From contig CAVRGH010000004.1 in NCBI GenBank assembly GCA_963720675.1, positions 135,531 through 199,530 of the forward strand: 64,000 nt of DNA, written 5' to 3'. Numbering within the stretch: the stretch's first letter is position 1; every line of letters starts with the position of its first letter. Shown piece by piece: positions 3,511 to 33,693 of this stretch. Source of the stretch: an uncultured Acidimicrobiia bacterium. GTDB taxonomy: Bacteria > Actinomycetota > Acidimicrobiia > IMCC26256 > PALSA-555. The notes under the pieces were generated by a model. That model searched no databases and was not told the DNA's origin. It saw only the letters and a program-made list of their open reading frames with translations. The translations under genes were made by a program, and so were the position numbers.

Positions 3511-4068
3511 ATGGGCATGGAGCAGATCCCCCACAACTTCCTCACCGGGCGGCTCGAGGACCTCGTGAAGTGGGCGCGTCGCAACTCGATGTGGCCCGCG
3601 ACGTTCGGTCTCGCGTGCTGCGCCATCGAGATGATGGCGACGGGCGCGGCGCACTACGACCAGGCCCGCTTCGGCATGGAGGTCTTCCGCGCGAGCCCGC
3701 GCCAGGCCGACCTCATGATCGTCGCCGGTCGGGTGAGCCAGAAGATGGCGCCGGTGCTCCGGCAGGTCTATGACCAGATGGTCGAGCCCAAGTGGGTCAT
3801 CTCGATGGGCGTGTGCGCCAGCAGTGGCGGCATGTTCAACAACTACGCGATCGTCCAGGGCGTCGACCAGATCGTTCCGGTCGACGTCTACGTGCCCGGC
3901 TGCCCGCCCGGCCCCGAGACCCTGCTGCACGGGATCCTCACGCTCCATGAGCAGGTGCGCTCCGGCGAGATCATGCGCCGGCGTGGCGAAGGGCACGGCG
4001 CCGGCATCCGGGTCGACCAGATCGACGGCACGCCGTCGCACGTCCAGCCCGTCAACACTCCCGCCTGA
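3511..4068 (+). CDS. nuoB: NADH-quinone oxidoreductase subunit B (operon 1)
   Basis: [23 protein letters not shown]; ATG at 3511 just after the nuoA stop. Confidence 0.96.
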
Positions 4069-4693: not shown

Positions 4694-5998
4694 ATGAGTG
4701 AAGAGATCATCACGAGCGACCCGGACCAGAACCGGCTCGAGGCGCAGACCGACGAGGGCGCGCAGGTCCTGCGGCCGACGGGGGGTGCGAGCGAGCACGA
4801 GCTGGTGCTGACCGGTGGGCTGTGGCCCGACGAGGCCGAGACCACGATCATCAACATGGGTCCGCAGCACCCGTCGACCCACGGGGTGCTGCGGGTCATG
4901 CTCGAGCTCGACGGCGAGACGGTGCTGCGCGTGAAGCCCGTCATCGGGTACCTGCACACCGGCATGGAGAAGACGGCCGAGGAGCTCACCTACGTCCAGG
5001 GCGCGACCAACGTCACGCGCATGGACTACGTCTCTCCGCTCTCGAACGAGCTGGTGTGGTCGACCGCGGTCGAGCGGCTGCTCGACGTCGAGGTGCCGAC
5101 GCGCGCGGTGTGGATCCGGATGCTCCTCGTCGAGCTCAACCGCATGGCGTCGCACCTCCTCTTCCAGGCCACGAACGGCATGGACATCGGCGCGCTGTCG
5201 ATGATGATCTACGGCTGGCGCGAGCGAGAAGAGGTGCTTCGTCTGCTCGAGATGTTCACCGGGCTGCGGATGAACAACAACTTCATCCGACCCGGCGGAG
5301 TTGCTGCCGACCTCCCCGACGGGTGGGAGGCCGCGACGCTCGAGGTCTGCGACATCGTCGAGAAGGGTGTGCGCGAGTACTCCGAGCTGCTCACCCAGAA
5401 CCCGATCTGGATGGAGCGCCTCGTCGGCGTCGGGGTCATCACCACCGAGCAGGCGCTCGCGCTCAGCATCACCGGGCCGATCTTGCGCTCGACCGGCTTC
5501 CCGTGGGACCTCCGGAAGGCGCAGCCGTACCTGGCCTACGACGAGGTCGACTTCGACGTCGTCTACACGGAGAACGGTGACTGCTACGACCGTTTCCTGA
5601 TCCGGCTCAACGAGATCCACGAGTCGGTGAAGATCGTCCGGCAGTGCGTGGAGCGCATGCCCCGCGGCGACTACCGCCTCCAGGACGCAAAGATCACCCC
5701 GCCGCCGCGTGCGCGCATCGACGAGTCGATGGAAGCGCTGATCCACCACTTCAAGCTGTTCACCGAGGGCTTCAAGGTGCCGGCCGGCGAGACCTACTGC
5801 GCAGTCGAGTCGCCACGCGGTGAGATCGGCTGCTATCTCGTGTCGGATGGATCGGGAAAGCCGGCTCGGATGCACATCCGAGGCCCGTCGTTCTACAACC
5901 TGCAGTCGGCGGGGCCGATGACCGAGGGTTCGTTGATCGCCGACGCGGTCGCGATCATCTCGAGCGTCGACCCGATCCTCGGAGAGGTGGACCGGTAG
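4694..5998 (+). CDS. nuoD: NADH-quinone oxidoreductase subunit D (operon 1)
   Basis: NMGPQHPSTHGVLR, GYLHTGMEK, RMDY, ends GEVDR. Confidence 0.97.
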   Translation: MSEEIITSDPDQNRLEAQTDEGAQVLRPTGGASEHELVLTGGLWPDEAETTIINMGPQHPSTHGVLRVMLELDGETVLRVKPVIGYLHTGMEKTAEELTYVQGATNVTRMDYVSPLSNELVWSTAVERLLDVEVPTRAVWIRMLLVELNRMASHLLFQATNGMDIGALSMMIYGWREREEVLRLLEMFTGLRMNNNFIRPGGVAADLPDGWEAATLEVCDIVEKGVREYSELLTQNPIWMERLVGVGVITTEQALALSITGPILRSTGFPWDLRKAQPYLAYDEVDFDVVYTENGDCYDRFLIRLNEIHESVKIVRQCVERMPRGDYRLQDAKITPPPRARIDESMEALIHHFKLFTEGFKVPAGETYCAVESPRGEIGCYLVSDGSGKPARMHIRGPSFYNLQSAGPMTEGSLIADAVAIISSVDPILGEVDR

Positions 5999-13355: not shown

Positions 13356-15446
13356 GTGAACGCGCACGATCTGCTCCAGACGGTCGGCATCGTGCCGCTG
13401 TTGCCGTTGCTCGGCGCGGTGCTGCTGCTGTGCTTCGGGAAGCGCATCGGCGAACCGCTCGCCGGCTGGATCGCGACCGGCCTCATGGGCCTCGCGTTCC
13501 TGTGGTCGCTCGTGATGCTCGCAGCGGCGCTGAGCCTTCCGCCCGACGAGCGGTCGGTGTCGACCGTGCTGTTCACCTGGCTCCCGGCGGATCAGCTCAA
13601 GGTCGACATGGCGTTCCTGGTCGACCCGCTCTCGATCACCTGGATCCTGCTCGTCACCGGCGTCGGGATGCTGATCCACATGTACGCGATCGGGTACATG
13701 CACGGAGATCCCGGGTTCGGTCGCTTCTTCGCGTACTTCAACCTGTTCGCGGCGTCGATGCTGATCCTGGTCCTCGGGAACAACTACCTGGTCACCTTCC
13801 TCGGGTGGGAAGGCGTGGGCGTCTGCTCGTACCTCCTCATCTCGTTCTGGAACCAGCGGGAGAGCGCGGCCCTCGGCGGCAAGAAGGCGTTCATCTACAA
13901 CCGCGTCGGTGACTTCGGGTTCATGCTCGCGATGTTCCTGTTGATCGCGGAGTTCGGCACGCTCGACTACGGCGCGACCTCACAGGCCGCGGCGACCGCG
14001 GCCGGTGGCGTGGTGACGGCCGTCGCGCTCCTCCTCTTTCTCGCGGTCACCGGGAAGAGCGCACAGATCCCGCTCTTCCCGTGGCTCGCCGACGCGATGG
14101 AAGGTCCGACACCCGTCTCCGCGCTCATCCACGCGGCGACGATGGTGACCGCCGGGATCTTCCTCGTCGCACGAACCCACGCGTTCTTCGACGCGAGCCA
14201 GGACGCCTCCACGGTCGTCGCATGGATCGGCGGGCTCACCGCGTTGCTCGCGGGGACGGTCGCCTGCCTCCAACCCGACATCAAGCGCGCGCTGGCGTAC
14301 TCGACGATCAGCCAGCTCGGGTACATGGTCCTCGCGCTGGGTTTGCACGCGTACACGGCCGCGGTGTTCCTCGTCCTGATGCACGCGTTCTACAAGGGCT
14401 GCCTGTTCCTCGGTGCCGGGTCGGTCATCCACGGCAACGACGAGAACCAGGACATGCGGGTCATGGGCCGCCTCAGGGGTTTCCTCCCGGTGACTGCTGC
14501 GGGGATGGTGATCGCGTGGCTCGCCATCACCGGGGTCCCGCCGTTCGCCGGCTTCTGGTCGAAGGACCTCGTGATCGAGTCGGCGTTCGAGGCCGGCGAC
14601 TACGGGCTGTGGGTGACGGCGACGCTCGCGGCCGTCATGACCGGTCTGTACATGACGCGGCTCATCTACCTCACGTTCTTCGGCAACGCTCGCTTCAACG
14701 ATCTGCCCCAGCCCGACGCGGTCCCCTCGGTCAGCGGGGGCTCCGACGACGACGCCGCGGTTGCGGTCGCCGATCCCGACGCCGCTGTGTACACGGAGGC
14801 CGACCTCGGGTACGACCCGGACTTCTCGCCGACCGTCGACTACCGCGAGCCGGCACGCGCACCCCGGCTGCACGGCCACGAGCCGCACGAGAGTCCGACG
14901 GTGATGCTCGTCCCCATCGGCGTGCTCGCGTTCCTCGCCGCCATCGGCGGCCTGCTCAACCTGCCGATCCAGGGCCTCGAGTTCCTCGGCGAGTGGCTCG
15001 ACCCGGTGTTCCAGGGGGTCGACCAGCCCCACCCGTCGAGCTTCGACGAAGGGTTGGCGCTCACCGGCATCGCGTTCCTGTTCGCGGCGATCGGTATCGG
15101 CATCGCGTACCTCATCTACCGACGCGGGCTGCGGGCTCCGAACGACGACCCGTTGCGCAAGAACCTCGGAAGCGGCGCGAACGTGGCGGGGAACGCCTAC
15201 TACCTCGACTCCGGGGTCTCGGCGTTCGTCGACAAGCCCGGACGGGCGACCGCCGGCTTCCTCGACGAGACGGTCGACACCAAGGTCATCGACGGCAGCG
15301 TCAACGGGGTCGGGCACCTCGTGAAGCGCGCCGGTGACGGTCTGCGCGCGGTGCAGGACGGCCACGTTCGTCGCTACGCGATCGGCATCGTGCTCGGCGC
15401 GACCGCGTTGCTCATGTACCTCCTCGTCTACGTGGCGCGCTCGAGC
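13356..15446 (+). CDS. nuoL: NADH-quinone oxidoreductase subunit L (operon 1); reads in frame into nuoM as sequenced
   Basis: WEGVG, GKSAQIPL..WLADAMEGPTPVSALIHAATMV; no stop before the nuoM ATG. Confidence 0.92.
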
Positions 15447-17048
15447 ATGGGCGACTTCCCGATCCTCTCCGCGATCATCGTCACGCCCCTGATCGGTGGG
15501 ATCATCGTGATGTTCCTCCCGGCCGAGCGGCCCGAGGTCATCAAGGCGGTCGGCTACCTGTTCACGATCGCGACGCTCGCACTGAGCCTCTGGATGCTCT
15601 GGGAGTTCTCGACGACCGACTACTTCTTCCAGTTCGTCGAGGACCACGCCTGGATCCCCGGCATCGGCACGCGCTACATCGTCGGCGTCGACGGCATCAG
15701 CCTCTTCATGATCGTGATCACGGCGGTGCTCATGCCGATCGGGTTGGTCGCGTCGGCGAAGTACCCCACGCATCGGCCGAAGGCGTTCGTGGCGTGGTTC
15801 CTGGTCCTCGAGTTCACGATCATGGGCGTCTTCCTCTCCCTGGACCTCATCCTCTTCTTCGTGTTCTGGGAGCTGCTGCTCGTCCCCATGTACTTCCTGA
15901 TCCAGGGCTGGGGGCACGAGCGCAAGAACTACGCCGCCACCAAGTTCTTCCTGTACACGGCCGCCGGTTCGGCGCTGATGTTCGCGAGCATCCTGACGCT
16001 CGGCTTCCTCCACCAGTCCGACACGGGTGTCCTCTCGTTCGACTACCGCGTGCTCGCGGAGTGGGGCTGGACCGGGCTCGGCGGGACCACCGAGGTGCTC
16101 CTGTTCCTCGGGTTCATGGCCGCCTTCGCGATCAAGGCACCGTTGTTCCCGTTCCACACCTGGCTCCCCGACGTGCACACCGAGGCCCCCACGGCGGGAT
16201 CAGTCGTCCTGGCCGGCGTGATCATCAAGATGGGTGCCTACGGGCTGCTGCGGTTCTCCTTCGAGCTGTTCCCGCAGGCCTCGGTCGACCTGGCGCCGGT
16301 GATGCTCACCCTCGGCGTGATCGGCATCGTCTACGGGGCAGTCGTCGCCGCGATGCAGAAGAACGCGAAACGGGTGATCGCCTATTCATCCGTCGCGCAC
16401 ATGGGCTTCATCGTGCTCGGGATCTTCTCGCTCACGGTGTTCGGGCTCGATGGCGCGGTGTTCACGATGCTGAGCCATCCGCTCACCACCGGCGCACTGT
16501 TCCTCACGGTCGGCTTCCTGTACGAGCGGCGCCACACCTACGAGATGGCCGAGTACGGCGGCATCTGGAAGTCCGCGCCGATCCTCACCGCGATGTTCAT
16601 GATCGCGATGTTCGCCGGCATCGGCCTGCCCGGGTTCTCCGGCTTCATCGGCGAGTTCCTGTCGCTCCTCGGGACGTTCGTGTCCGAGCGACCCTGGGCC
16701 GTGGTCGGTGCGACCGGGGTGATCCTCGCGTCGGTCTACATGCTGTGGTCGTTCCAGAAGGTCTTCACCGGCAAGCCGAACCCACGGCATCCGAAGCTCA
16801 AGGATCTGCACCTGCGTGAGATCGCCGTGGTCGCGCCCCTGCTCGCGCTCAGCCTCTTCCTCGGTCTCTACCCGAAGCCGGCGCTGGACCGCATCGAGCC
16901 CTCGGTGCAGCGGTCGATCGTGAACCTCCAGCTCAAGACCGACTACAAGGAGACGCGACCCGCGGGCTCTGACGAGACCGAGCTCCATGGCGTCAAGCCG
17001 GGTGCCTCGGTCCACCTGGGTCGCACCGGGCGCGGGGGGCAGCAGTGA
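15447..17048 (+). CDS. nuoM: NADH-quinone oxidoreductase subunit M (operon 1)
   Basis: MGDFPILS start, GVDGISL, FPFHTWLPDVHTEAPT, AYSSVAHMG. Confidence 0.93.
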   Translation: MGDFPILSAIIVTPLIGGIIVMFLPAERPEVIKAVGYLFTIATLALSLWMLWEFSTTDYFFQFVEDHAWIPGIGTRYIVGVDGISLFMIVITAVLMPIGLVASAKYPTHRPKAFVAWFLVLEFTIMGVFLSLDLILFFVFWELLLVPMYFLIQGWGHERKNYAATKFFLYTAAGSALMFASILTLGFLHQSDTGVLSFDYRVLAEWGWTGLGGTTEVLLFLGFMAAFAIKAPLFPFHTWLPDVHTEAPTAGSVVLAGVIIKMGAYGLLRFSFELFPQASVDLAPVMLTLGVIGIVYGAVVAAMQKNAKRVIAYSSVAHMGFIVLGIFSLTVFGLDGAVFTMLSHPLTTGALFLTVGFLYERRHTYEMAEYGGIWKSAPILTAMFMIAMFAGIGLPGFSGFIGEFLSLLGTFVSERPWAVVGATGVILASVYMLWSFQKVFTGKPNPRHPKLKDLHLREIAVVAPLLALSLFLGLYPKPALDRIEPSVQRSIVNLQLKTDYKETRPAGSDETELHGVKPGASVHLGRTGRGGQQ

Positions 17049-20337: not shown

Positions 20338-21225
20338 TCAGCTCGCGAGGCGCTTCCACCACCGGCGCTTGCGCTGCCGACCCGGGCGTTCGGCGAGATC
20401 GTCGAGGGCCTGGACCGTGAGGTCATACGCACCCTGGATCAGCTCCGCGGCGCCGGAGAAGTCGAGGAAGTCGCGGTCGTCGCGCGGCGGTGGGAGCACG
20501 ACCACCTCGATCTCCTTCGGTACCCACTGGAGCTCGAGCTCGAACCGCTGGTCGCGAGAGATCGCGAACGCGCGCACGGCGACGTCGAGCGGTGATCGGA
20601 TCGGGCGGTCGCTGATCGGGTCGGAGACGTCGAGCACGAAGATGCGGTCGATCGGCCCGGCGAGGGCGTGCGAGATCGGTACGAGGTTCACGACCGCGCC
20701 GTCGACGAGCGTGTGGCCGTTGAGCACCACCGGCGGGAAGAGCCCGGGCAGCGCGGAGCTGGCCAGCAGCGCAGCGGGAAGGTCGCCCCGAACGATGACG
20801 TGCTCGTCGCCGGTGATGAGGTCGGAGGCGACCACCCGGAGGGGGATCTGAAGATCGGCGAACGAGGACGCGACCCCCACGCGGTCGATCAACGACGTGA
20901 GTCCGTCGGCCGGGATCAGGTGGTCGTCGCGCCGGAGCAGGTTCCAGGCCCGGCGCAACGTGTTGCCCGGGAAGACCTCGTCGCCCTTGAGGGTGCACCA
21001 GACGCTCTCGAGGTGGTCGACCTGGGCCAGGGTCGGTGCCGTGGCGATGACCGAACCGTTGAGCGCACCGACCGAGGTCCCGATGATCACGTCCGGTCGG
21101 ATTCCCCGCTCGAGCAGGGCGCGGAGCATGCCGACCTGGCTGACGCCCTGGTTGCCCCCGCCCGAGAGGACGAACGCGGTGATCGGTCCGGTCCGGTCCC
21201 GGACGGCTCGCAGGGTGGCAGTCAT
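20338..21225 (-). CDS. Patatin-like phospholipase family protein
   Basis: [13 protein letters not shown] (GxSxG), VDGA; AGGAGG RBS upstream of the ATG at 21225. Confidence 0.9.
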
Positions 21226-21421
21226 CGGTCCTCCTCGCCCGATGAGATCGTCGCGCATCCGGGGCCGGATCCCGGACCCGACCCCCGGATCCGACCCAGG
21301 ATCTGGGCACCGGGATCCCGAGATCCGTGGTCAGGAACCGACCCTTCGGTTTGTGGCTGCCGAGAATCCGCTGGGTATGCTCCGGGCGCACCGGCCTCGG
21401 GGGAGGGAAGGCACCAGCGCC

Positions 21422-21784
21422 GTGACGGAGTTCTACCGGGAGTACCTCGCGGTCGCGCTGTTGATCGTGGCTGCGATGCTCATGGTCGGCGCGATGCTCG
21501 GCTTGGGTCGCCTCGTGCGTCCCAACCGCCCGCAGTCCGAGAAGTACATCACCTACGAGGCGGGTTCGGACCCGGTCGGCGGCTGGGGCCAGTCGAACGT
21601 CCGCTACTACGTCTACGCGCTGCTCTTCGTCATCTTCGACGTCGAAGCCGTGTTCATCTTCCCGTGGGCCGTCAACCTCGAGTCGCTCGGGGTCTTCGGG
21701 CTCGTCGAGATGATCGCGTTCATCGCGATCCTCGCGTTCGGTCTCGTCTATGCGTGGCGAAAGGGAGTGCTGCGGTGGGCCTGA
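21422..21784 (+). CDS. nuoA: NuoA-like subunit (operon 2)
   Basis: [32 protein letters not shown]; GTG start with RBS and TATGCT -10-like box at 21376. Confidence 0.94.
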
Positions 21785-22290
21785 TCGAGAGCGGGCGGAT
21801 GCCGAAGCCGCTCACCCACCTCCTCAACTACAGCCGCAAGTACTCGCTCTGGATGTTCCAGTGGGGACTCGCGTGCTGCGCGATCGAGATGGGCGCCGCA
21901 CTGGCGAGCCCGCGCTACGACATGATGCGCCTCGGCGTCATCCCCTTTCCCGCCAGCCCGCGCCAGGCCGACCTCGTCGTCATCTCCGGCACCGTCACCG
22001 ACAAGATGGCCCCGGCGATCAAGCGGCTCTACGAGCAGATGCCCGACCCGAAGTACGTCATCTCGATGGGCTCGTGCGCGAACTGCGGCGGCCCGTACTG
22101 GGACTCGTACTCGGTCACGAAGGGCGTCGACCAGGTGATCCCGGTCGACATCTACGTGCCCGGCTGTCCGCCCCGTCCCGAGGCGCTGTTGCAGGCGATC
22201 GTCATGCTGCAGGAGCGGATCCAGCACGAGGGCATCGACAACGACCAGCTGGCCAAGCGTTGGCGCGGGGAGCCGATCACCGTTGCCTGA
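21775..22290 (+). CDS. nuoB: NuoB-like subunit (operon 2)
   Basis: [26 protein letters not shown]. Confidence 0.95.
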
Positions 22291-23059
22291 CGACATGACG
22301 ACGCCGGTGAGCGAGCGACCCGAAGGGTCGGACGGGGTACCCCCGTCCGAAGCGAGCGAGCCCATCGAGGAGGACGCTGCGGCCGCGCCCGAAGCCGAGG
22401 CCACCCCGGAGCCGCCGGCGCTCAGCGAGCGGCAGGAGGCCGTGCTGTCCCGCGTCGCCGAGCACCTCGGCGACGCGGTCATCGAGGCGCTGCCCGTGTT
22501 CGACGACGTCGTCGTCCGCGTGCGGCACGACGCGTGGCGCCAGGCGGCCGAGGTCGCGAAGACGCAGATGGACTGCGACTACCTCTCGTTCATCGCCGGG
22601 ATCGACTGGTCGCCGGCGCCGAAGGAGGGTGGCGACGACGCCGGGAGCGACACCTCCTCCCCGGTGCAGCCCACCGAGATGACGTTCGGCGCCGCCGGCT
22701 CGGCGGGCCGGTTCCAGGTCTTCGCGCACGTGCAGTCGACCCACCGCCACTGGGGCGTCACGTTCAAGGTCGACCTCGACGAGGCCGAACCGCGCGTGGC
22801 GTCGTGGGTCCCGGTGTACCCGGGCGCCGACTGGCACGAGCGGGAGTGCTGGGAGATGTACGGGTTCGTGTTCGACGGGCACCCGAGCCTCCGCGGCCTC
22901 TACCTCCCGGCCGAGTTCGAGGGGCACCCGCTCCGCAAGGACTTCCCACTGCTCGCCCGGGTCGTGAAGCCGTGGCCCGGCCTCGTCGACGTCGAGGGCA
23001 TGCCCGATGAGCCGGAGGACGCGGCCGACGCTGCGGCAACCGAAGAGGCCGGCGCATGA
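22283..23059 (+). CDS. nuoC: NuoC-like subunit (operon 2)
   Basis: [26 protein letters not shown]; start uncertain (22283 or 22295). Confidence 0.92.
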
Positions 23060-24243
23060 GCACCACCGAGACGCCGAACACCCCGCAGTTCGAGGTCGAC
23101 CCGGTCGCGCTCACGCCCCTGGGCGACGCACGCATCAACGTCGAGCTCGACACCGGCGACATGATCCTCAACATGGGGCCGCAGCACCCCGCGACGCACG
23201 GCACGCTGCGCCTCGTCGTGCGCCTCGACGGCGAGCGGGTCGTCGCCGCCGACCCGGTCATCGGGTACATGCACCGCGGCTACGAGAAGCTCGCCGAGTT
23301 CCGCACCTACCCGCAGGTGACGACGCTCATCAACCGGATCGACTGGCTCTCGAGCTTCGCCAACGAGGTCCCCTTCATGGAGGCCGCCGAGAAGCTCATG
23401 GACGTCGAGGCGCCGCCGCGCGCCAAGTACATCCGCACGATCCTCACCGAGCTGTCCCGGATCGCGACCTTCCTCCTCTTCCTCGGCGAGATGGGACTGC
23501 AGGTCGGCGCGCTCACGCCCGCGTTCTACGGGTTCCGCGACCGGGAGCACATCCTCAACCTCATCGAGGCCGTCACCGGGGGTCGGTTCCACCCGAACTT
23601 CAACCGCATCGGTGGCGTGAAGGACGACCTGCCCTGGGGCTGGCTCGCCGAGTGCCGGTCGGCCATGCAGATCGTGTTCGACGCGTGCGACGTGTTCGAG
23701 GACCTCGTCCTCGGCAACGAGATCTTCGAGGCCCGCTGCCGGGGCATCGGGATCATCCCCGCCGAGCTGGGTGCGGCCTACGGCGTGTCCGGCTCGAACC
23801 TGCGGGCGTCCGGCGTGGACTGGGACCTCCGACGCGACGGCGAGCCCTACCTCGCGTACCCGGACCTCGACTTCAAGGTGTGGACGCACCCCGACGGCGA
23901 CTCGTACTCGCGGTACTGGGTGCGACTCCAGGAGACGCGCGAGTCCGCGCGCATGGTGCTGCAGTGCCTCGATGCGATCCCCGCCGGCGCGGTGATGGCC
24001 AAGGTGCCGCGCATCATCAAGGTGCCCGAAGGTGAGATCTGGGTCGAGACCGAGAACCCGCTCGGGCAGATGGGCTACTACGTCGTGTCGAAGGGTGCGA
24101 CGGGCCCGTTCCGGGTGAAGATCCGCTCGGCCTCGTTCAGCAACGTCTCGATCCTGCCGTGGCTCCTGCAGGGCGTCTACGTGCCCGACATCATCACGAT
24201 CCTCGCGGGCCTGTACTTCATCCTCGGGGACATCGACCGATGA
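23056..24243 (+). CDS. nuoD: NuoD-like subunit (operon 2)
   Basis: NMGPQHPATHGTLR, GYMHRGYEK, ends GDIDR; no NiFe-binding CxxC pairs. Confidence 0.95.
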   Translation: MSTTETPNTPQFEVDPVALTPLGDARINVELDTGDMILNMGPQHPATHGTLRLVVRLDGERVVAADPVIGYMHRGYEKLAEFRTYPQVTTLINRIDWLSSFANEVPFMEAAEKLMDVEAPPRAKYIRTILTELSRIATFLLFLGEMGLQVGALTPAFYGFRDREHILNLIEAVTGGRFHPNFNRIGGVKDDLPWGWLAECRSAMQIVFDACDVFEDLVLGNEIFEARCRGIGIIPAELGAAYGVSGSNLRASGVDWDLRRDGEPYLAYPDLDFKVWTHPDGDSYSRYWVRLQETRESARMVLQCLDAIPAGAVMAKVPRIIKVPEGEIWVETENPLGQMGYYVVSKGATGPFRVKIRSASFSNVSILPWLLQGVYVPDIITILAGLYFILGDIDR

Positions 24244-24302
24244 GCCGCAGCGGAGCCGTGGCCGGATGGCCGGGACGGCGTAGCGAAGGCGACCGAGCAT
24301 GA
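24240..24302 (+). repeat. MIRU-like intergenic unit carrying a 20-codon ORF ([20 protein letters not shown])
   Basis: Starts at ATGA overlapping the nuoD2 stop and ends at ATGA overlapping the nuoH2 start. Confidence 0.55.
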
Positions 24303-25351
24303 TGAGCGGCGCAATCGCCAACCACGCGGTGCTCGCGCTCGAGGTCGGGTGGGGCACCACGATGGCCATCAAGACGCTGGTCATCCTGATGATCATCCCG
24401 TTGGGCGCGCTGATCCTCGGGTACACGTTCCTGCTCAAGATGATGAGCCACATGCAGAGCCGCCTCGGGCCGATGGACCCCGGCGGCTTCCACGGCTGGT
24501 TCCAGCTCGTCGGTGACGGCCTGAAGTTCCTCCAGAAGGAGGACATCATGCCGGGCGAGGCCGACCGGCGGGTCTTCGCCGCCGCGCCGGCCGTCGTCGT
24601 CCTCTCCACCTTCCTGGTGTTCGCGGTGATCCCGATGGGGCCCGACCTCGTCGTGAAGGATCTCGACGTCGGTGTCTTCTACGCCCTCGCGGTCTCGAGC
24701 CTCTCCGTCATCGGTGTGCTCATGGCCGGGTGGGCGAGCGCGAACAAGTTCGCCCTCCTCGGTGCGCTGCGCGCCGCCGCGCAGCTGATCGCGTACGAGC
24801 TCCCGCTGATCCTCGCGGTGGTCGGCGTCGTCATGCAGGCGGGCACGATGAGCCTGCAGGGGATCGTCTACGCGCAGCGCGACGGTTCGATGTTCGGCAT
24901 CGAGGCGCTCGGCAACCCCTTCATCTTCACGCAGTTCATCGGCTTCGCCCTGTTCCTCGTCGCGGCCCAGGCCGAGCTCACCCAGACCCCCTTCGACATG
25001 CCGGTCGCCGAGAGCGAGCTCGTGTCCGGGTACATGGTCGAGTACACGGGTTTCCGCTTCCTCTTCTTCTTCATCGGGGAGTTCGGCACCGCGTTCGCGT
25101 TCTCCGCGCTCGCGGCCACCCTCTTCCTCGGCGGCTGGTCGATCCCCGGCGTCACCGGCGACATGGCGAACATCCTCGGACCGTTCGCGCTGTTCGCGAA
25201 GCTCATGTTCGTGGCGTTCCTGATGTTCTGGGTCCGCTTCACCTATCCGCGTTTGCGTGAAGACCAGCTCCAGCAGCTGGCATGGAAGGTGCTGATCCCC
25301 ATCGGTCTGCTGAACATCCTGGTGACCGGCATCCTGAAGGTGGCCGTGTAG
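24299..25351 (+). CDS. nuoH: NuoH-like subunit (operon 2)
   Basis: [26 protein letters not shown]. Confidence 0.94.
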
Positions 25352-25836
25352 TGCCGAAGCTTCCCGGACTCATCGGTGGGTTGGGCATCACGCTCAAGAC
25401 GATGTTCAAGCCCGCCGTCACGGTGCAGTACCCGCACGAGAAGGAGGCGCCGGCCCCGCGCGCCCGTGGGGTCATCGCGCTCAAGGAAGAGAACTGCACG
25501 GTCTGCATGCTGTGCGCCCGGTCGTGTCCCGACTGGTGCATCTACATCGAGGGCCACAAGGAGCAGCGCCCGCCGCGTCGCGAAGGCGGACGGCCGCGCT
25601 CGGTGAGCGTCCTCGACCGCTTCGACATCGACTACGCGCTGTGCATGTACTGCGGCATCTGTGTCGAGGTGTGCCCGTTCGACGCGCTGTTCTGGTCGCC
25701 CGAGTACGAGTACTCCGAGAACAGCATCGCCAAGCTGCTGCACGACAAGCAGAAGCTCGGCGAGTGGATGGAGAGCGTGCCCGAGCCCGAACCCCTCGAG
25801 GTCGGCGCCCTGCCCCCGAAGGGGGCGAAGAAGTAG
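25351..25836 (+). CDS. nuoI: NuoI-like subunit (operon 2)
   Basis: [12 protein letters not shown] and [12 protein letters not shown]. Confidence 0.94.
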
Positions 25837-25838
25837 CC

Positions 25839-26345
25839 ATGTGGGAGCAGCAGGTCGCGTTCTGGATCCTTGCCGTCGGCATGGCCGTCGCCGCGATCGG
25901 GGTCGTGCGATCGAAGAACATCGTGCACGCCGCGCTGTTCCTCGTAGTCGTGCTCGCGGGCGCGGCGGCGCAGTACATCCTGCTGGCCGCCGAGTTCGTC
26001 GCGTGGGTGCAGGTGCTCATCTACATCGGCGCGGTGGTCATCCTCTTCCTCTTCGGCATCATGCTCACCCGCGCGCCCATGCGCGGAGAAGGCGGGAAGC
26101 TCGACAACGACCAGCGCTGGGCAGCCGCCGCGGTGGCGCTGCTCGTCTTCGGCGTCCTCGTCGCGCTCCTGGTCGACGCCTTCGGGGGCCAGGAGATCCG
26201 GTTCGGCCACGAGCTCGTCGCGCAGGGGAGCACGGAGTCGGTCGGGAGCGACCTGTTCCGCAGCTTCGTCGTGCCGTTCGAGGTCGTCTCGATGTTGCTC
26301 CTCGCCGCGCTCATCGGCGCCGTCGTCCTGGCGAGAAGGGACTGA
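25839..26345 (+). CDS. nuoJ: NuoJ-like subunit (operon 2)
   Basis: [34 protein letters not shown]. Confidence 0.94.
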
Positions 26346-26349
26346 CGCG

Positions 26350-26649
26350 GTGGAGCTGAACCAGTTCTTGATCCTCAGCGCGTTCCTGTTCGGGACCGGC
26401 ATCTACGGCGTGCTCGCCCGACGCAACGGCGTGCTCGTGCTCATGAGCGTCGAGCTGATGCTGAACGCCGTGAACATCAACCTGGTCGCGTTCTCGGCGT
26501 TCAACCACGACGTCGGTGGCCAGATCTTCGCTCTCTTCATCATTGCGATCGCTGCTGCCGAGGTGGGAGTCGGCCTCGCGATCGTCCTGCTCATCTACCG
26601 GAACCTGCGTAGTCCCGACCTCGACGAGGTCGACCAGTTGAAGGGCTGA
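26350..26649 (+). CDS. nuoK: NuoK-like subunit (operon 2)
   Basis: [27 protein letters not shown]. Confidence 0.95.
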
Positions 26650-26659
26650 GACTCACCCG

Positions 26660-28729
26660 ATGATGCTCGACTCCGTCTGGATCGTCGTGGCGCTCCCCGC
26701 GCTCTCGTTCCTCGTCATCCTCTTCTTCGGCAAGCGCTTGCCGAAGGGTGGTGCCTGGATCGGGATCGGGGCCGTCGGCGCGTCGTTCGTCCTGTCCTGT
26801 GTCACCGCTGCGCAGTGGATCAGCCGCGTCAGCGATGCCGAAGGGCACTCGGTCGGCCTCGGGGCCTTCGGCAAGGGCGTGCTGCTCTCCGGTGGCGAGC
26901 ACGCCGTGGTGCAGCCGGTGGTGCACTCGATCACGTGGTGGCGGACCGGCGGCGTCACCTTCAGCGTCGGCACGTACGTCGACGGCCTCACCGTGATGAT
27001 GCTCTTCGTCGTCACGATCATCTCGCTGCTCGTGCACATCTACTCGACGGGGTACATGCGCGGCGACCACCGCTACACGTGGTTCTTCGCCTGCCTCTCG
27101 CTCTTCACCTCCTCGATGCTGCTCCTGGTCGTCGCCGACAACACGCTGCAGATGCTGGTGGGCTGGGAGCTGGTCGGCCTCTGCTCGTTCATGCTCATCG
27201 GCTTCTGGTGGGAGGACCCGGCCAACTCGCGCGCCGCGATCAAGGCGTTCCTCACCACCCGCACCGGCGACATCGGCCTGATGATCGGCGTGATCATCCT
27301 CTTCTTCGCGGTCGGCTCGTTCGGGATCGAGCAGACGAACCTCTACGCCAACGGCCCGCTCGGTCAGCACGACATCCTGCTGGCCGCCTCGGTCTGCCTG
27401 ATGATCGCGATCATGGGCAAGAGCGGCCAGTTCCCGCTGCACACCTGGCTGCCCGACGCGATGGCCGGCCCGACGCCGGTCTCCGCGCTCATCCATGCCG
27501 CCACGATGGTCGTCGCCGGCGTCTTCCTCGGCGCCCGCCTCTACCCGGTGTTCTACGAGGGCTTCTCGATCGGCGACGGCGGCGTGAACATGATGGCGTT
27601 GATCGGCGGCATCACGATCCTGATCGGCGCGGTGCTCGCGTTCGTCCAGAAGGACATCAAGAAGGTCCTCGCGTACTCGACGATCAGCCAGCTCGGGTAC
27701 ATGGTGATGGCGCTCGGTGTCGGGGCCTGGGTGGCCGCGGTCTTCCACCTCTTCACCCACGCGTTCTTCAAGGCGCTGCTGTTCCTCGGCGCCGGCTCGG
27801 TCAGCCACGGCGGGACGCACCACAGCTTCGACATGGGCGAGATGGGTGGGCTGCGCAAGCCGATGCCCATCACCTTCTGGACCTTCATGATCGGGTCGCT
27901 GGCGCTCTGGCGGGCGTCTTCCCGCTCGCGGGGTTCTGGTCGAAGGACGAGATCCTCGTCAACGCCGGGTCGAACGGCTTCGAGGTGTTCATGGTCGTCG
28001 GGTTCGTCGGCGCGTTCCTCACCGCGGCCTACATGACCCGCTGCGTGTACCTGACGTTCTTCGGGGAGTACCGGGGGACGCACCACCCGCACGAGTCCGA
28101 GCGCTCGATCACGATCCCGCTCGATCATCCTGGCCGGGTTCTCGATCTTCGTCGGGCTCATCAACGCGGCTCCCTCGGGCCTCGAGAAGTTCACCGAGTA
28201 CGTGGAGCCGACGTTCGCGTTCCCCGATCTCGCCCACGCCGAGTTCGACTACCCGAAGGCGATCATCTCGCTCGCGATCGTGGCGCTCGCGATCGGCGTC
28301 GCCGGGTTCTTCTGGTTCCGCCACGAGGAGTTCGGCAAGCTCAAGGGGCTCACGGAGCGCAACCGGGCCGCGCACGCGGGCTACACGTTCCTCGAGAACA
28401 AGTACTACCTCGACCACCTCTACGAGAACGTCATCGTCGGCGGTATCACCGGACCGGTGGCCCGCGCCTCGTACTGGGTCAACCAGCACGTCATCGACGG
28501 TGTGGTCAACGGTGCCGGTCGCGGTGCCCGTGCGTTCGGGCAGGTCGCGTACGACACCTTCGATCAGCGAGTGGTCGACGGTGCGGTCAACGCGCTCGCG
28601 ACCGAGACCGGCGCGGCCGGTGAAGAGCTGCGCAAGATCCAAACGGGACAGGTACAGCGGTACGCATTGCTGTTGTTCGCATCGGTGGGGCTGCTCAGCC
28701 TCATCCTGTTCCTGACGAACGTCCTCTAG
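26660..28729 (+). CDS. nuoL: NuoL-like subunit (operon 2), frameshifts near 27907 and 28123
   Basis: WELVG, GKSGQFPLHTWLPDAMAGPTPVSALIHAATMV; C-terminal QTGQVQRY in a shifted frame. Confidence 0.9.
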
Positions 28730-28755
28730 ATCGGCATCGGAAGGGCTACGGAGCG

Positions 28756-30304
28756 ATGGACTGGTTCGACGACTCGGCGTTGACGCTGGCGGTGTTCGTA
28801 CCGCTCGTCGGCATGGCGCTGGTGCTGCTCATCCCGAAGGTCCACGAGACTGCGATCAAGTCGATCGCCCTGCTCACCGCGGTCATCACCGGTGCGGTGG
28901 GGATCGGGATCCTCGCGCGCTTCGACTACGGCGCGTCCGGGAAGCTGCAGTTCCAGATCAACAAGCCATGGATCCCGCTCATCCACAGTCGGTACCACCT
29001 CGGCATCGACGGCATCTCCCTGCCGTTGCTGATCCTCTCGATGCTCATGGTGATCCTGTGCATCATCTACTCGTGGGACCACTTCCCCGAGCCGCACAAC
29101 CCGAAGGCGTTCCTCGCGCTGATCCTGCTGCTGCAGGTCGGGATGAACGGCACGTTCGTCGCGCAGGACCTGATCCTCTTCTTCATCTTCTTCGAGCTCG
29201 TCCTGCTGCCGATGTTCTTCATGATCGGCGTCTGGGGCGGACCGAACCGCGAGTACGCGTCGATCAAGTTCTTCCTCTTCACGCTCTTCGGCTCGGCGCT
29301 CATGTTGGTGAGCTTCCTGGCCATCTACTTCGTGTCCGACGTGCAGACGTTCGACATGGTCGCGTTGTCGCGCCTCGGTGCCGCGGGGATCACGCAGTCG
29401 ACCCAGGTGCTCCTGTTCGCGGGCCTGTTCCTCGGCTTCGCGATCAAGGTGCCGATGTTCCCGTTCCACACGTGGCTGCCCGATGCGCACACCGAGGCGC
29501 CGACCGTGGGCTCGGTGCTCCTGGCCGCGATCATGCTGAAGCTCGGCACCTACGGCTTCATCCGGATCGCCCTGCCGATCCTGCCCAAGGGGGCGGAGGA
29601 GTGGGCCCCCTGGATCGGGCTGCTCGCGGTGATCGGCATCATCTACGGGGCGCTGTGCTGCCTCGCGCAGAAGGACATGAAACGGCTCATCGCCTTCTCG
29701 TCCGTCTCGCACATGGGCTTCGTGATGCTCGGCATCGCGACGCTCACCAGCTTCGGGCTCAACGCGGCCGATCTTCGGGATGGTCGCGCACGGTTTCATC
29801 ACCGGCATGCTGTTCTTCCTCGCCGGTTCGGTCCAGGAGCGCTACGGCACCCGCGAGATGAGCCGCCTCGGCGGCCTGCTCACGCAGGCGCCCAAGCTCG
29901 GGTGGATCCTCGGCTTCACCGCGATGGCCTCGCTCGGGCTCCCGGGCCTGGCGGGCTTCTGGGGTGAGTTCCCGGCGGTGCTCTCCGCGTACGACCCGTC
30001 GAAGCTCGCCCAGGGCCTGTTCGGCTCCGACAACAACCTGTGGACCTATCGGACCTTCATGGTCGTCGCGGCGATCGGCACCGTGCTGGCCGCGGGCTAC
30101 CTGCTCATGATGCTGCAGAGGGTCGCGTTCGGGAAGGTGAAGCCGGAGTTCGAGCACGCCCACATCCACGACGTGCACGTGCTCGAGTGGGTCGCGTGGA
30201 CGCCACTCCTGCTGCTCACCGTGATCCTCGGCTTCTACCCCGACCTGCTCTTCTCGATCACCGACGGTGCCGTGAACAACGTGACGAAGGTCTTCGGGGG
30301 ATAG
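28756..30304 (+). CDS. nuoM: NuoM-like subunit (operon 2), frameshift near 29770
   Basis: GIDGISLP, FPFHTWLPDAHTEAPT, then MVAHG..LPGLAGFWGEF. Confidence 0.92.
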
Positions 30305-30307
30305 CGC

Positions 30308-31772
30308 GTGAACCCCTCGATCGACTACCACGCGCTCGCGCCGGAGATCGTCCTCACCGGGACGATCATCGTGTGCCTGCTCGTGGACCTCTTCGTCTCC
30401 GGGCGGCCCGCAGCTCGTCCCGCGGCTCGCGAGCTTCGGGGTGCTCGGCGCGCTCATCCCGGTGCTCACGCTCGCGGCCGACGGCACCGACCGCTCGATG
30501 TTCGGCGGCGCGATCGTCGTCGACAACTACGCGCTCGCGTTCCAGGGCTTCTTCCTGATCGTCGCGTACCTCTCGCTGCTGCTCTCGTTCGACGAGATCT
30601 CGGAGGGCGACTACTACCGCGGCGAGTACTACGTGCTCATGCTCACGTCGGTGCTCGGGCTCCTCGTCATGGCGATGTCCCGCGACCTGATCTCGATCTT
30701 CGTGGCCCTCGAGACGATCTCGATCCCGACGTTCGTCCTCGCCGCGTGGCGCAAGCACGACACCAAGTCGAACGAGGCCGGCCTGAAGTACTTCCTCATC
30801 GGCGTGCTCTCGTCCGCAGTGATGCTCTACGGCATGTCGCTGGTCTACGGGCTGTCGAGCTCGACGCTGCTCACCGACATCAACCGCTACGCGCTCAGCA
30901 ACACGCCGGCCCTGTTCGCGGTCGCGATCTTCCTCACCCTGGTCGGCTTCGCGTTCAAGGTGAGCGCGGTGCCGTTCCACTTCTGGGCGCCGGACACCTA
31001 CGTCGGCGCTCCGCTCCCGGTCACCTCGTTCCTGTCGGTGGCGTCGAAGGCCGGCGGGTTCGTCGCCCTGCTCACGATCATCAAGTTCGGGTTCTTCAAC
31101 TCGACCGACTCGTGGGAGCCGATCCTCTGGATCCTCGCCGCGGCGTCGATGACGCTCGGGAACCTGGCCGCGCTCAAGCAGACGAACGTGGTGCGGATGC
31201 TGGCCTACTCGTCGATCGCCCAGGGTGGGTTCATCCTGGTGCCGCTGGCGGTGGCGGGCGACGTGGTGGGCAACTCGGCGTGGGAAGCCGTCATCATCTA
31301 CATCATCATCTACGGCGCGATGAACATCGGCGCCTTCGCCGCCGTGATCGCCGTGGCGCGACGCACGCGCTCGGCCGAGATCAAGAGCTTCTCGGGTCTC
31401 GGGACGACCGACTCGCGCACTGCGGTGCTGCTCTCGATCTTCCTGTTCTCGCTCGCCGGCATCCCGCCGTTCGCGGGGTGGTTCGCGAAGTTCGTGATGT
31501 TCCGAGCCGTCTTCGACGCCGGCACCACGTCGGCCGTCGTGCTGGGTGTGATCGCGGCGGTCAACTCGGTGATCGCGTTCTACTACTACATGGCAGTGGT
31601 CCGCCGGATGTGGTTCCACGAGGCGGAGGAGCCGGTCGTGACGGCCGCGTCGTCGCCGGTCCCGGTCGCCCTCACCGCGGCGATGTTCCTCTCGACCGCG
31701 GTCGTGATCATCTGCGGTGTCGCACCGCACATCGTCGCCCGCGTCGGCGAGCTCGCCTTCACGCCTGGCTGA
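30308..31772 (+). CDS. nuoN: NuoN-like subunit (operon 2), frameshift near 30407
   Basis: LAPEIVL N-terminus; EAGLKYF, PFHFWAPDTY, RMLAYSSIAQGG, GIPPFAGWFAKF. Confidence 0.92.
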
Positions 31773-31781
31773 TCTCGCTCA

Positions 31782-31808
31782 CCGCGGGCCGGGATACCCG
31801 GCCCGCGG
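31782..31808. terminator. Hairpin after nuoN2 with CCGGG-ATA-CCCGG core
   Basis: ccgcgggccggg-ata-cccggcccgcgg, perfect 12-bp stem. Confidence 0.55.
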
Positions 31809-31871
31809 CCGTTCGCTCGCTGGCGGACTCACTCCGCTGCGCTTCGTTCGCCGCGCGCGTAGCGTCGGCGC

Positions 31872-33049
31872 ATGTCCCTGGAACATGTGCTCGGCGATCG
31901 GATCCGCCGGAACGGCCCGATCACGTTCGCGGAGTTCCAGGACGCCGCGCTCTACGACCCCGAGGGCGGGTTCTTCACCACCGGTGGCGGTGCGGGACGC
32001 GCCGGACGCGACTTCGTCACCAGCCCCGAGGTCGGCACGTTGTTCGGTGCCCTCGTGGCCCGGCACCTCGACCGGACGTGGACGCGTCTGGGCGCGCCGG
32101 ATCCCTTCGTCGTGGTCGAGGTCGGTGCCGGGCGCGGCCGGCTCGCAGCCGACGTCCTCCGAGCGGCGCCCGGCGTGCGCGCGCGGCCCTGCGATACGTG
32201 CTGGTCGAGCGGTCCGAGCTGCTGCGGACCGAGCAGCGCGATCTCCTCGCGGTCGAGCCGGCCGACGAGGCGCTCGGACCGGTGCTCCGCAGCGCCGACC
32301 CGGACGAGGACGACGAGCGGGTCCCGGGGACGGGGCCGATCGTGGCCTCGATCGACGAGCTGCCGGGCGTGGTGTTCCAGGGCGTCGTGCTCGCGAACGA
32401 GCTGCTCGACAACCTGCCCGTGCGCATCGTGCAGGCCACGGCGGACGGCTGGGCCGAGGTGCGGGTCGGCCTCGAGGCCGAGCGACTCGCGGAGGTGCTC
32501 GTGCCGGCCGATCCGACGCTCGCGGCCGAGGCGGCGGTCGTGGCCGACGGCACGCCGGTCGCCGAGGGTGTGCGCCTCCCGGTGCCGACCGCGATCGCCG
32601 ACTGGCTGGCGGCGGCTGCCGCGGTGCTGCGTCGGGGGGAGGTCGTGCTGCTCGACTACGCGGACGGGGCCGCCGGCCTCGCCCGCCGACCGCCCACCGG
32701 CACCGACGGATGGCTCCGCACCTATCGCCTCCACGAGCGGGGCGGCGACGCGCTCGACCGGCCCGGCACCCAGGACATCACCGCCGACCTCCCGCTCGAG
32801 TACCTGCGGGCGGTGGCCACGCGATCGGGCTTCGCCGTCGCGGCCGAGGTCTCCCAGGCCGAGTGGCTCCGAGGGCTCGGGGTCGACGACCTGGTGGAGG
32901 AGGGCCGTGCGGTCTGGCGGGAGCGGGCCCACCTCGGCGACCTCGAGGCGATCGCCGGGCGCAGCCGGGTCGGCGAGGCCGAGGCCCTGCTGGACCCGGC
33001 CGGTCTGGGCGCCCACCGGGTCATCACGCTCGAGCGGTCGTTCCGATAG
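31872..33049 (+). CDS. NDUFAF7/MidA-family SAM-dependent methyltransferase, frameshift near 32170-32185
   Basis: GPITFAEF..ALY.P..GFF, DFVTSPEV, VEVGAGRG, then ANELLDNLP, LDY, GTQDITA, SQAEWL. Confidence 0.88.
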
Positions 33050-33114
33050 CGTCACCCCCGCCTTTCCCGGGCCAACAGGTTCGGGTCATCTACAGGCTGT
33101 AGGGGGAGAACGAC

Positions 33115-33693
33115 ATGGTCGAGACGCAAGCGGCGGCCGCCGACATCAAGCAGGCCGCCAAGGCCTGGTGGCTGTTCCTCGTCACCGGGATGCTCTGGTT
33201 CATCATCTCGCTCGTCGTGCTGCGCATGAACGACCGCTCGATCACGACCGTGGGGGTCATCCTCGGGATCGTGTTCATCATCGGGGCGTTCAACGAGTTC
33301 CTGATGATGGGGGCCGACAGCACCGGATGGAAGGTCCTGCACGGGATCCTCGGTGTGCTGTTCATCCTTGCCGGGATCTGGGCGTTCGTGCAGCCCGAGG
33401 AGGCGTTCTGGGCGCTGGCGTCGGTGCTCGGGTTCCTGCTGCTCTTCATGGGGCTCTTCGAGATCATCGCCGCGGTGGCCACCAAGGAGATCAACCCGCT
33501 CTGGTGGCTCGGCCTGATCGCCGGGATCCTGTTCCTCGTGCTGGCGTTCTGGACGTCGCAGCAGCTCGTCACGACGAAGGGGCAGCTGCTCCTCTTCTAC
33601 GTCGGCCTGATGGCGATGTTCCGGGGGATCAGCCAGATCGTGTTCGCGTTCGGCATCCGCCACGTGGGCAAGGAAGCCGCCAAGCTGGCCTAG
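33115..33693 (+). CDS. HdeD/DUF308-type membrane protein
   Basis: About six TM segments in a repeated pattern (WWLFL..G..G..) typical of HdeD. Confidence 0.7.
   Translation: MVETQAAAADIKQAAKAWWLFLVTGMLWFIISLVVLRMNDRSITTVGVILGIVFIIGAFNEFLMMGADSTGWKVLHGILGVLFILAGIWAFVQPEEAFWALASVLGFLLLFMGLFEIIAAVATKEINPLWWLGLIAGILFLVLAFWTSQQLVTTKGQLLLFYVGLMAMFRGISQIVFAFGIRHVGKEAAKLA

Follow-up and report, generated by a model that had tools for sequence, protein, structure and literature searches.

A predicted MidA/NDUFAF7-family methyltransferase gene accompanies the arginine-bearing NuoD paralog of an 11-subunit complex I in Acidimicrobiia and other Actinomycetota

The NuoD/NDUFS2 subunit of respiratory complex I contains an HRGXE motif, the arginine of which lies 3.7 Å from cluster N2 and carries a symmetric dimethyl modification in Paracoccus as well as in yeasts and mammals (Hameedi 2021, PMC8042128). 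Symmetric dimethylation of this residue has been reported for the bovine, human, Pichia and Paracoccus (Nqo4) enzymes, the arginine being unmodified in NuoCD of E. coli (Carroll 2013, PMC3750175), and the human enzyme responsible for methylation of the NDUFS2 arginine is NDUFAF7 (PMC3829151). In Thermus, a threonine replaces the arginine of NuoD, and Arg83 of Nqo6 (NuoB) occupies the same space (Hameedi 2021, PMC8042128). Here we describe midA, a gene predicted to encode an S-adenosylmethionine (SAM)-dependent methyltransferase of the same family as NDUFAF7, in a stretch of 64,000 nucleotides (nt) of DNA, hereafter the window, from an uncultured Acidimicrobiia bacterium (GenBank assembly GCA_963720675.1, contig CAVRGH010000004.1, positions 135,531 to 199,530 of the forward strand). 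The gene lies at the end of the second of two complex I operons, nuo1 and nuo2, and the evidence presented below suggests that its product methylates Arg74 of NuoD2, the NuoD subunit encoded by nuo2; we put the probability of this reading at roughly 0.7.

Several described systems resemble this locus in part. NDUFAF7/MidA, known from human and Dictyostelium and acting on Arg85 of NDUFS2, shares family PF02636 with the window gene, and the presumed targets lie in the same HRGxE motif of NuoD/NDUFS2; the window gene, by contrast, is bacterial, is genetically associated with only one complex I paralog of the two (that without NuoEFG), has low identity to its homologues in the PDB and has a predicted activity. 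Paracoccus denitrificans Nqo4 provides an example of a bacterial NuoD with a symmetrically dimethylated arginine (PMC3750175), but Paracoccus has a single 14-subunit complex, whereas the window genome encodes two complexes. The arrangement of nuo1, with a threonine in NuoD1 and an arginine in NuoB1, is identical to the Nqo4-Thr/Nqo6-Arg83 switch of Thermus thermophilus (PMC8042128), although in the window genome both arrangements coexist and the methylase is attached to the copy that is not of the Thermus type. A matching gene order has been described in Candidatus Actinomarina, another Acidimicrobiia lineage, in which a heliorhodopsin (HeR) cluster comprises HeR, an 11-subunit nuo operon, NDUFAF7, htpX and pspE, with a 14-subunit nuo operon nearby (bioRxiv 10.1101/2021.02.01.429150). 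The order nuoA, B, C, D, H–N followed by a PF02636 gene is common to that cluster and the window, and was thus already in print for Ca. Actinomarina, where NDUFAF7 is termed an accessory assembly component. In the window, unlike in Ca. Actinomarina, neither heliorhodopsin nor afu genes were identified next to nuo2, the upstream neighbours being a patatin-family gene and pgi; in its available text, the Ca. Actinomarina paper takes up neither the Arg/Thr difference of the paralogs nor the NuoB switch. Finally, the nuo2 genes of Streptomyces (nuoA2, B2, H2–N2) are contiguous 'with the exception of nuoD2', which lies elsewhere (PMC3765725). A similar layout was found here in two actinomycetotal families (f42, which has large genomes, and f37), and the available portion of the Streptomyces paper makes no mention of a midA gene beside the separate nuoD2.

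Pfam scans and a frame plot of the G+C content at third codon positions (GC3) show two complex I operons in tandem in the window, both on the + strand. The first, nuo1, extends from about 3.0 to 18.6 kb, from nuoA to nuoN, and encodes the full set of 14 subunits, with E, F and G among them. The second, nuo2, extends from about 21.4 to 31.8 kb and contains A, B, C, D, H, I, J, K, L, M and N contiguously and in this order, with no nuoE, F or G. As nuoH2 directly follows nuoD2, the NADH-oxidising module (nuoE/F/G) is absent from nuo2, which encodes an 11-subunit, 'ancestral-type' complex I without an NADH module. Between the two operons lie pgi and then, on the minus strand, the patatin-family gene. 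An earlier interpretation of this DNA, made from its letters without database searches (the sequence-only reading), had described nuo2 as "headless", had placed a methyltransferase about 100 nt after nuoN2 on the same strand, and had read GYMHRGYEK in NuoD2 and GYLHTGMEK in NuoD1. The Pfam order bears out the first of these statements; the methyltransferase is a PF02636 gene separated from nuoN2 by 99 nt, and translation gives the arginine (CGC, Arg74) and the threonine (ACC) at the codons first assigned to them (Table 1). The genome contains one midA and two NuoD genes (profile search of the genome), the products of the latter being 41% identical and the genes about 18 kb apart in the window. 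A spacing of about 17–20 kb, on the same contig and strand, was also seen in most of the order-level genomes in which both NuoD genes were found, and on this basis the tandem nuo1–nuo2 layout is old in the order.

The residues at the target site differ between the two complexes in a regular manner. When NuoD2 was compared with solved structures (phmmer), Arg74 fell opposite the threonine of Thermus Nqo4 (igymhRgyek vs igylhTgfek) and opposite an arginine in NdhH of Thermosynechococcus. In NuoB1, the arginine of IVAGRVSQK aligns with residue 83 of Nqo6 (...VAGRLSKK; residue counted in the alignment), whereas NuoB2 (VISGTVTDK) has a threonine at this site, like the bovine subunit, and the same threonine is present in the NuoB2 of every relative whose match spans the site. 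By these alignments, complex 1 is of the Thermus/Mycobacterium type (D-Thr/B-Arg) and complex 2 of the mitochondrial type (D-Arg/B-Thr). Since NuoB1 supplies a compensating arginine and NuoB2 has a threonine, only complex 2 would offer a MidA-type target. The idea that the threonine of NuoD1 marks a degenerate copy was considered and rejected: the arrangement is the regular one of Thermus and Mycobacterium, and the best PDB match of NuoB1 is 8e9g_B, followed by Thermus 2fug_6. Both motifs are constant in the order-level sample (GYMHRGYEK in 34/34 NuoD2-type pieces and GYLHTGMEK in 37/37 NuoD1-type pieces), so there is no covariation signal at this level.

Membership of midA in the MidA/NDUFAF7 family is established by its profile match, its SAM-binding motif and homology to the Dictyostelium enzyme; catalytic activity is predicted. 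The PF02636 profile scored 98.1 bits over positions 49–245 and 31.5–32.9 bits over positions 1–40, for a gathering cut-off of 23.3. The product contains the glycine-rich motif ExGxGxG (VEVGAGRGRL), and in an alignment of 55 actinobacterial family members neither any of the 14 invariant columns nor any of the 22 near-invariant ones is lost from it. An intact orthologue from the same genus (G002) matched 5ztz, the Dictyostelium 'protein arginine methyltransferase NDUFAF7 homolog', over residues 7–351 (E 5.9e-17), and also matched 4f3n (E 2.1e-26) and 1zkd (E 6.4e-22). Among 14 control genomes, PF02636 was matched in Caulobacter, Synechococcus and Haloferax (alpha-proteobacteria, cyanobacteria and haloarchaea) and was not matched in E. 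coli, the species whose NuoCD has the unmodified arginine.

The linkage of midA to nuo2 is conserved in Acidimicrobiia. PF02636 was found in 38 of the 41 order-level genomes, the three without a match being 73%, 81% and 96% complete; one order-level genome (G026, 96% complete) has NuoD1 only and no midA. In 27 of 30 fetched order-level loci, midA is immediately preceded by a nuoN2 orthologue on the same strand; the remaining three are cut off by the end of a contig, so that adjacency holds for 27/27 loci with enough flank. A second set consisted of 80 named species-representative contigs, labelled mostly Acidimicrobiia, Acidimicrobiales, Iamiaceae, Ilumatobacteraceae and similar groups; these contigs were the best matches to the midA alignment and are therefore biased towards relatives. 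Where the flank measured 600 nt or more (77 contigs), nuoN2 was located no more than 400 nt upstream of midA in 68, lies 419–9579 nt upstream in five and was not seen in four; all 41 NuoD2 genes within the named contigs read GYMHRGYEK. Lastly, adjacency was found in seven of the ten order- and class-level genomes of a phylum-wide sample (see below). In that sample, a full nuo2 operon is followed by midA in four class-level genomes (G072, G145, G131 and G102) and one of the same order (G117), and 5–6.6 kb is inserted between nuoN2 and midA in G187 and G159. Synteny of midA with an HRG-type NuoD, which the sequence-only reading had looked to relatives to show, is thus pervasive in this class.

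Outside Acidimicrobiia, a different architecture was found. The phylum sample was an even one of 151 Actinomycetota genomes, 54 of which contain PF02636, and nuoN2 lies upstream in only one, from the same order, of its 30 best-scoring midA loci. Eight families (f31, f37, f42, f49, f52, f57, f59 and f61) have a stand-alone nuoD2-type gene 0.03–9 kb from midA. In the first seven of these, midA adjoins the gene, which encodes about 390–400 amino acids with 47–52% identity to NuoD2 and is usually convergent with midA (tail to tail), and no other nuo gene was found near the pair in the fetched regions. The flanks of the split pair vary between families and include SelA/SelB, a histidine kinase with a response regulator, STAS proteins or a metallophosphoesterase. 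In three genomes of two families (L142, L170 and L172), the direct neighbour of the split nuoD2 is SelA, accompanied by SelB in two cases (L170 and L172). In two further instances (G156 and G142), the coordinates place midA 8–9 kb from an Arg-type NuoD motif. All 22 midA-linked NuoD2-type genes read GYMHR[GA][YA]EK. Two of the genomes concerned (G094, L146/L255; G054, L142/L256) have a second operon with the order A2-B2-C2-H2-I2-J2-K2-L2-M2-N2, without nuoD and with a threonine in NuoB2 at the switch site; judging from these sequences, the stand-alone nuoD2 is the missing subunit of a split nuo2 system. Where nuoD2 is separated from nuo2, midA goes with nuoD2, and this companionship is the strongest single argument for NuoD2 as the client of MidA.

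Taken with the residue pattern in four subunits (NuoD1, NuoD2, NuoB1 and NuoB2), the conserved midA–nuoD2 linkage is the observed basis of the following model. MidA would be a SAM-dependent protein arginine methyltransferase with NuoD2 of the 11-subunit complex encoded just upstream as its client. By extension from the mitochondrial enzyme, it would dimethylate Arg74 in the HRGxE motif facing cluster N2, probably before or during the docking of NuoD2 onto NuoB2. The gene would be transcribed together with nuo2 or right after it. The 14-subunit complex is not expected to be a client, as NuoD1 has a threonine at the site and NuoB1 would provide the arginine instead, in an inter-subunit switch of the Thermus type. 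A structure prediction of the NuoD2 + SAM + MidA complex returned a score of 0.00 ('no answer') and counts neither way.

The co-occurrence of midA and Arg-type NuoD was tabulated by hand across the phylum sample, with DNA motif patterns, the variants HRA.EK, HR..DK and GNLHRG, and protein and profile searches on the exceptions. An Arg-type NuoD was found in 53 of the 54 midA-bearing genomes (47 by the first two patterns, four by HR..DK and two reading GNLHRGVEK), so the co-occurrence with HRG-type NuoD on which the sequence-only reading depended is present. The raw odds ratio, 11 in the first tabulation, is descriptive only. In 25 of the 54, no more than 16 kb separates midA from an Arg-type NuoD gene, and midA was never near an HTG-type one. 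These counts include seven unpublished genomes (G160, G041, G188, G088, G058, G128 and G122), without which midA is present in 48/144, linked in 24/48 and accompanied by Arg-type NuoD in 47/48, at least 35/96 genomes without midA have Arg-type NuoD, and the arginine is present in 21/21 linked genes. One family, f31, contains genomes of both kinds. Its three midA-bearing genomes (G063, G078 and G108) all have an extra HRGYEK NuoD beside midA, and its seven genomes without midA (G048, G093, G122, G136, G150, G164 and G178) have only an HTG and an operon-borne HRAFEK NuoD, the extra HRGYEK copy being found in 0/7. The three midA-bearing genomes differ in their complement, G108 having HTG, HRAFEK and midA-side HRGYEK NuoD and the other two HTG and midA-side HRGYEK only.

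Several observations weigh against methylation of NuoD2 as the role of MidA. One genome (G118, 98% complete) has midA and only an HTG NuoD. Arg-type NuoD is also present in at least 36 of the 97 genomes without midA, a lower bound because these genomes were searched by pattern alone, and to which two further, doubtful DK matches could be added; whole families combine nuo1 and nuo2 in tandem with a lack of midA, among them f30, whose operons are of the HTG and HRGFEK types and which has midA in 0/8 genomes. As so many genomes have the arginine without midA, nuo2-type complexes cannot in general depend on methylation. No linkage between midA and a NuoD gene was seen in 29 of the 54 genomes with midA, and counts over relatives are not phylogenetically independent. 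A MidA from Wolbachia, expressed in E. coli, has been reported to methylate DNA (PMC12455994). To these points must be added two features of the window itself, both taken up below: a strong hairpin between nuoN2 and midA, and a midA frame that is broken both here and at the homologous spot in a same-genus genome (G001), with no public contig over the site.

The Wolbachia result, the unlinked genes and the genome with only an HTG NuoD would all fit a MidA acting on some other substrate, protein or nucleic acid, its place beside nuo2 or nuoD2 being inherited gene order without functional meaning; the function of prokaryotic MidA has, moreover, been described as 'only inferred in silico' (PMC12455994). 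This explanation nevertheless seems unlikely given that midA stands beside nuoD2 in two architectures, at the end of an operon and next to a split-off nuoD2 with varying neighbours, that it is never near an HTG NuoD, and that its presence in f31 matches that of the extra HRGYEK NuoD (3/3 vs 0/7). The sequence-only reading had proposed a paralog-specific system dedicated to the 11-subunit complex. This proposal is well supported in silico: gene order and the Arg/Thr difference agree with it within one genome, and so does the NuoB pattern, which that reading had not used.

Alternatively, the main role of MidA might be to bind NuoD2 as a chaperone of assembly, and this lineage might do without methyl transfer or lack it. 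Binding would account for the linkage to nuoD2 no less than catalysis would, and an Arg-type NuoD2 functions without midA in many relatives. However, conservation of GxGxG and of every invariant column over the 55 actinobacterial sequences and the window copy would be unexpected if SAM were unused, and we consider a mainly chaperone-like role improbable and methylation of NuoD2 the better account.

The hairpin between nuoN2 and midA (Table 1) bears on whether midA belongs to the nuo2 operon. The 111 nt from 31765 to 31875 fold with a free energy of -59 kcal/mol (z score -2.27). A consensus scan of 31000–33400 for promoters and terminators returned no sites of either kind, a hairpin without a T tract falling outside the terminator consensus. 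The gap between nuoN2 and midA ranges from 2 to 256 nt in relatives and is only 2–17 nt in several of them, which leaves no room for a hairpin of this kind; as a rule, then, midA belongs to the operon.

The sequence-only reading missed that midA is not one open frame. Pfam matches to the three-frame translation place profile positions 1–40 in frame 0 and 49–245 in frame 2, the switch being a 1-nt shift near 32170, within the GC-rich 32165–32185. Taken at face value, this shift, together with that at the homologous spot in G001, could indicate that midA is a decaying pseudogene and that the system is no longer active in this genome. However, split Pfam domains and three-frame translations revealed six further 1-nt shifts, in nuoN1 (~17560), pgi (~19000), nuoL2 (~27905 and ~28122), nuoM2 (~29771) and nuoN2 (~30405), making seven single-base frameshifts within 37 kb. 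Since pgi and nuoN1 are among the genes affected, and housekeeping genes are hit too, the shift in midA most probably arose as an indel during assembly. A search of public sequencing runs listed ten of DNA and none of RNA that hold this sequence, and contigs from four of the DNA runs (X1–X4) were aligned over 26600–33100. One letter is missing at 28122 in the short-read contigs of three runs, at 29771 in those of a single run, and at 30405 and 30410 in those of one run apiece; these single-letter differences coincide with three of the shift sites and are in the direction that restores the frame. No indel was listed in the public contigs at the first nuoL2 shift (~27905). At the midA shift, X1, X3 and X4 have no contig over 32025–32241, and the X2 contig stops at 32128.

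Comparison with relatives also argues against decay. In two many-contig assemblies of the same genus (G002 and G003), midA is intact and reads ...DVLRSTPSCASALRYLLVERS... across the shift site, and one extra base would restore the frame in the window (...AAPG-C-ARAALRYVLVERS), where every conserved midA residue is retained. G001 is assembled in only 7 contigs and yet has a marker completeness of 58%, as expected if many of its genes are broken by indels. The midA shift is thus very probably an assembly indel, and it is very improbable that the gene is decaying. In an assembly so prone to indels, automatic annotation would call several of these genes pseudogenes.

The coordinates of the features discussed are collected in Table 1. 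In addition, a single open frame of 1230 amino acids at 13356–17048 in nuo1 contains NuoL-type and NuoM-type domain sets, with no stop between nuoL1 and nuoM1; this joined frame could be a real fusion or a further assembly error. Downstream of midA, a gene for a DUF308 (PF03729) membrane protein is present at 33115–33693. It is kept only in the nearest relatives (e.g. L006, L009, L014–L016, L020 and L022) and therefore lies outside the conserved unit.

Table 1. Positions and diagnostic features of complex I genes, the intergenic hairpin and midA in the window; ORF, open reading frame.
Feature	Position	Strand	Family, diagnostic residues and remarks
nuoB1	3520..4068	+	Arg (CGG 3730-3732) in IVAGRVSQK opposite Thermus Nqo6 Arg83; alignment to 2fug_6
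nuoD1	4694..5998	+	14-subunit operon; Thr (ACC 4958-4960) at the target-Arg site; quinone-site Tyr112 kept
nuoA2	21491..21784	+	PF00507, residues 199-294 of ORF 20897-21784; Pfam-matched part only, start further upstream, uncertain
nuoB2	21760..22290	+	PF01058; Thr78 (ACC 21991-21993) at the position of Thermus Nqo6 Arg83, PDB alignments
nuoC2	22283..23059	+	PF00329
nuoD2	23056..24243	+	PF00346; Arg74 (CGC 23275-23277) in HRGxE; Trp97 (TGG 23344-23346); alignments to 2fug_4 and 6hum_H
nuoH2	24299..25351	+	PF00146
nuoI2	25282..25836	+	Fer4 families and frame plot; start uncertain
nuoJ2	25836..26345	+	PF00499, residues 128-273 of ORF 25512-26345
nuoK2	26350..26649	+	PF00420
nuoL2	26660..28729	+	PF00361 and PF00662; three frame segments, shifts ~27905 and ~28122
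nuoM2	28756..30304	+	PF00361 split 1-201 / 205-274 over two frames; shift ~29771
nuoN2	30308..31772	+	PF00361; N-terminus in frame 2, rest in frame 0; shift ~30405-30410; stop TGA 31770-31772
hairpin nuoN2/midA	31782..31808	+	perfect 12-bp G+C-rich stem, loop ATA, no T tract
midA	31872..33049	+	PF02636 (Methyltransf_28; COG1565), MidA/NDUFAF7 family; ATG at 31872; frame 0 to ~32168, frame 2 from 32171

The quinone site of NuoD2 is also unusual. Of the canonical residues, corresponding to His38 and Tyr87 of Thermus Nqo4, the histidine is retained and the tyrosine, a quinone ligand, is replaced by Trp97, NuoD1 keeping the tyrosine. The pair D98-W99 is invariant in 22/22 aligned NuoD2-type sequences, and D-W is also present in four f33 copies. 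According to a review, Y87W is found in piericidin producers and, as a mutation, lowers quinone activity. The second complex may, thus, handle its electron acceptor differently; the tryptophan marks the NuoD2 clade as atypical and has no bearing on operon membership.

Our literature search found no prior account of the residue logic of the paralogs (D-Arg/B-Thr vs D-Thr/B-Arg in one genome), of midA tracking a split-off nuoD2, or of the near-universal presence of Arg-type NuoD in midA-bearing Actinomycetota. The contribution of the dimethyl-arginine beside N2 has been described as unresolved (Hameedi 2021, PMC8042128), and the role of prokaryotic MidA was said in a 2025 paper to be inferred in silico (PMC12455994). 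Against this background, the locus provides a clean genetic argument for a bacterial enzyme–client pair, the methylase gene staying with the Arg-bearing NuoD paralog over two genome layouts while in the sister complex of that cell the arginine comes from NuoB, as in Thermus. More tentatively, and with rather less confidence than doubt, midA and nuoD2 might be held together by selection as a unit of two genes, older than the proteobacterial/mitochondrial system or separate from it in origin, arginine methylation next to cluster N2 being an old trait of the actinomycetotal 11-subunit complex I. If true, this would mean that an enzyme has been kept beside its single client even after the client left the operon, and it would speak against the view that MidA-type arginine methylation arose solely in proteobacteria. 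As the split nuoD2–midA pair is found in Streptomyces-like actinomycetes with large genomes, the hypothesis is open to study in a tractable organism. A methylatable complex 2 and a non-methylatable complex 1 in one cell would, moreover, constitute a natural internal control for the effect of the modification on N2.

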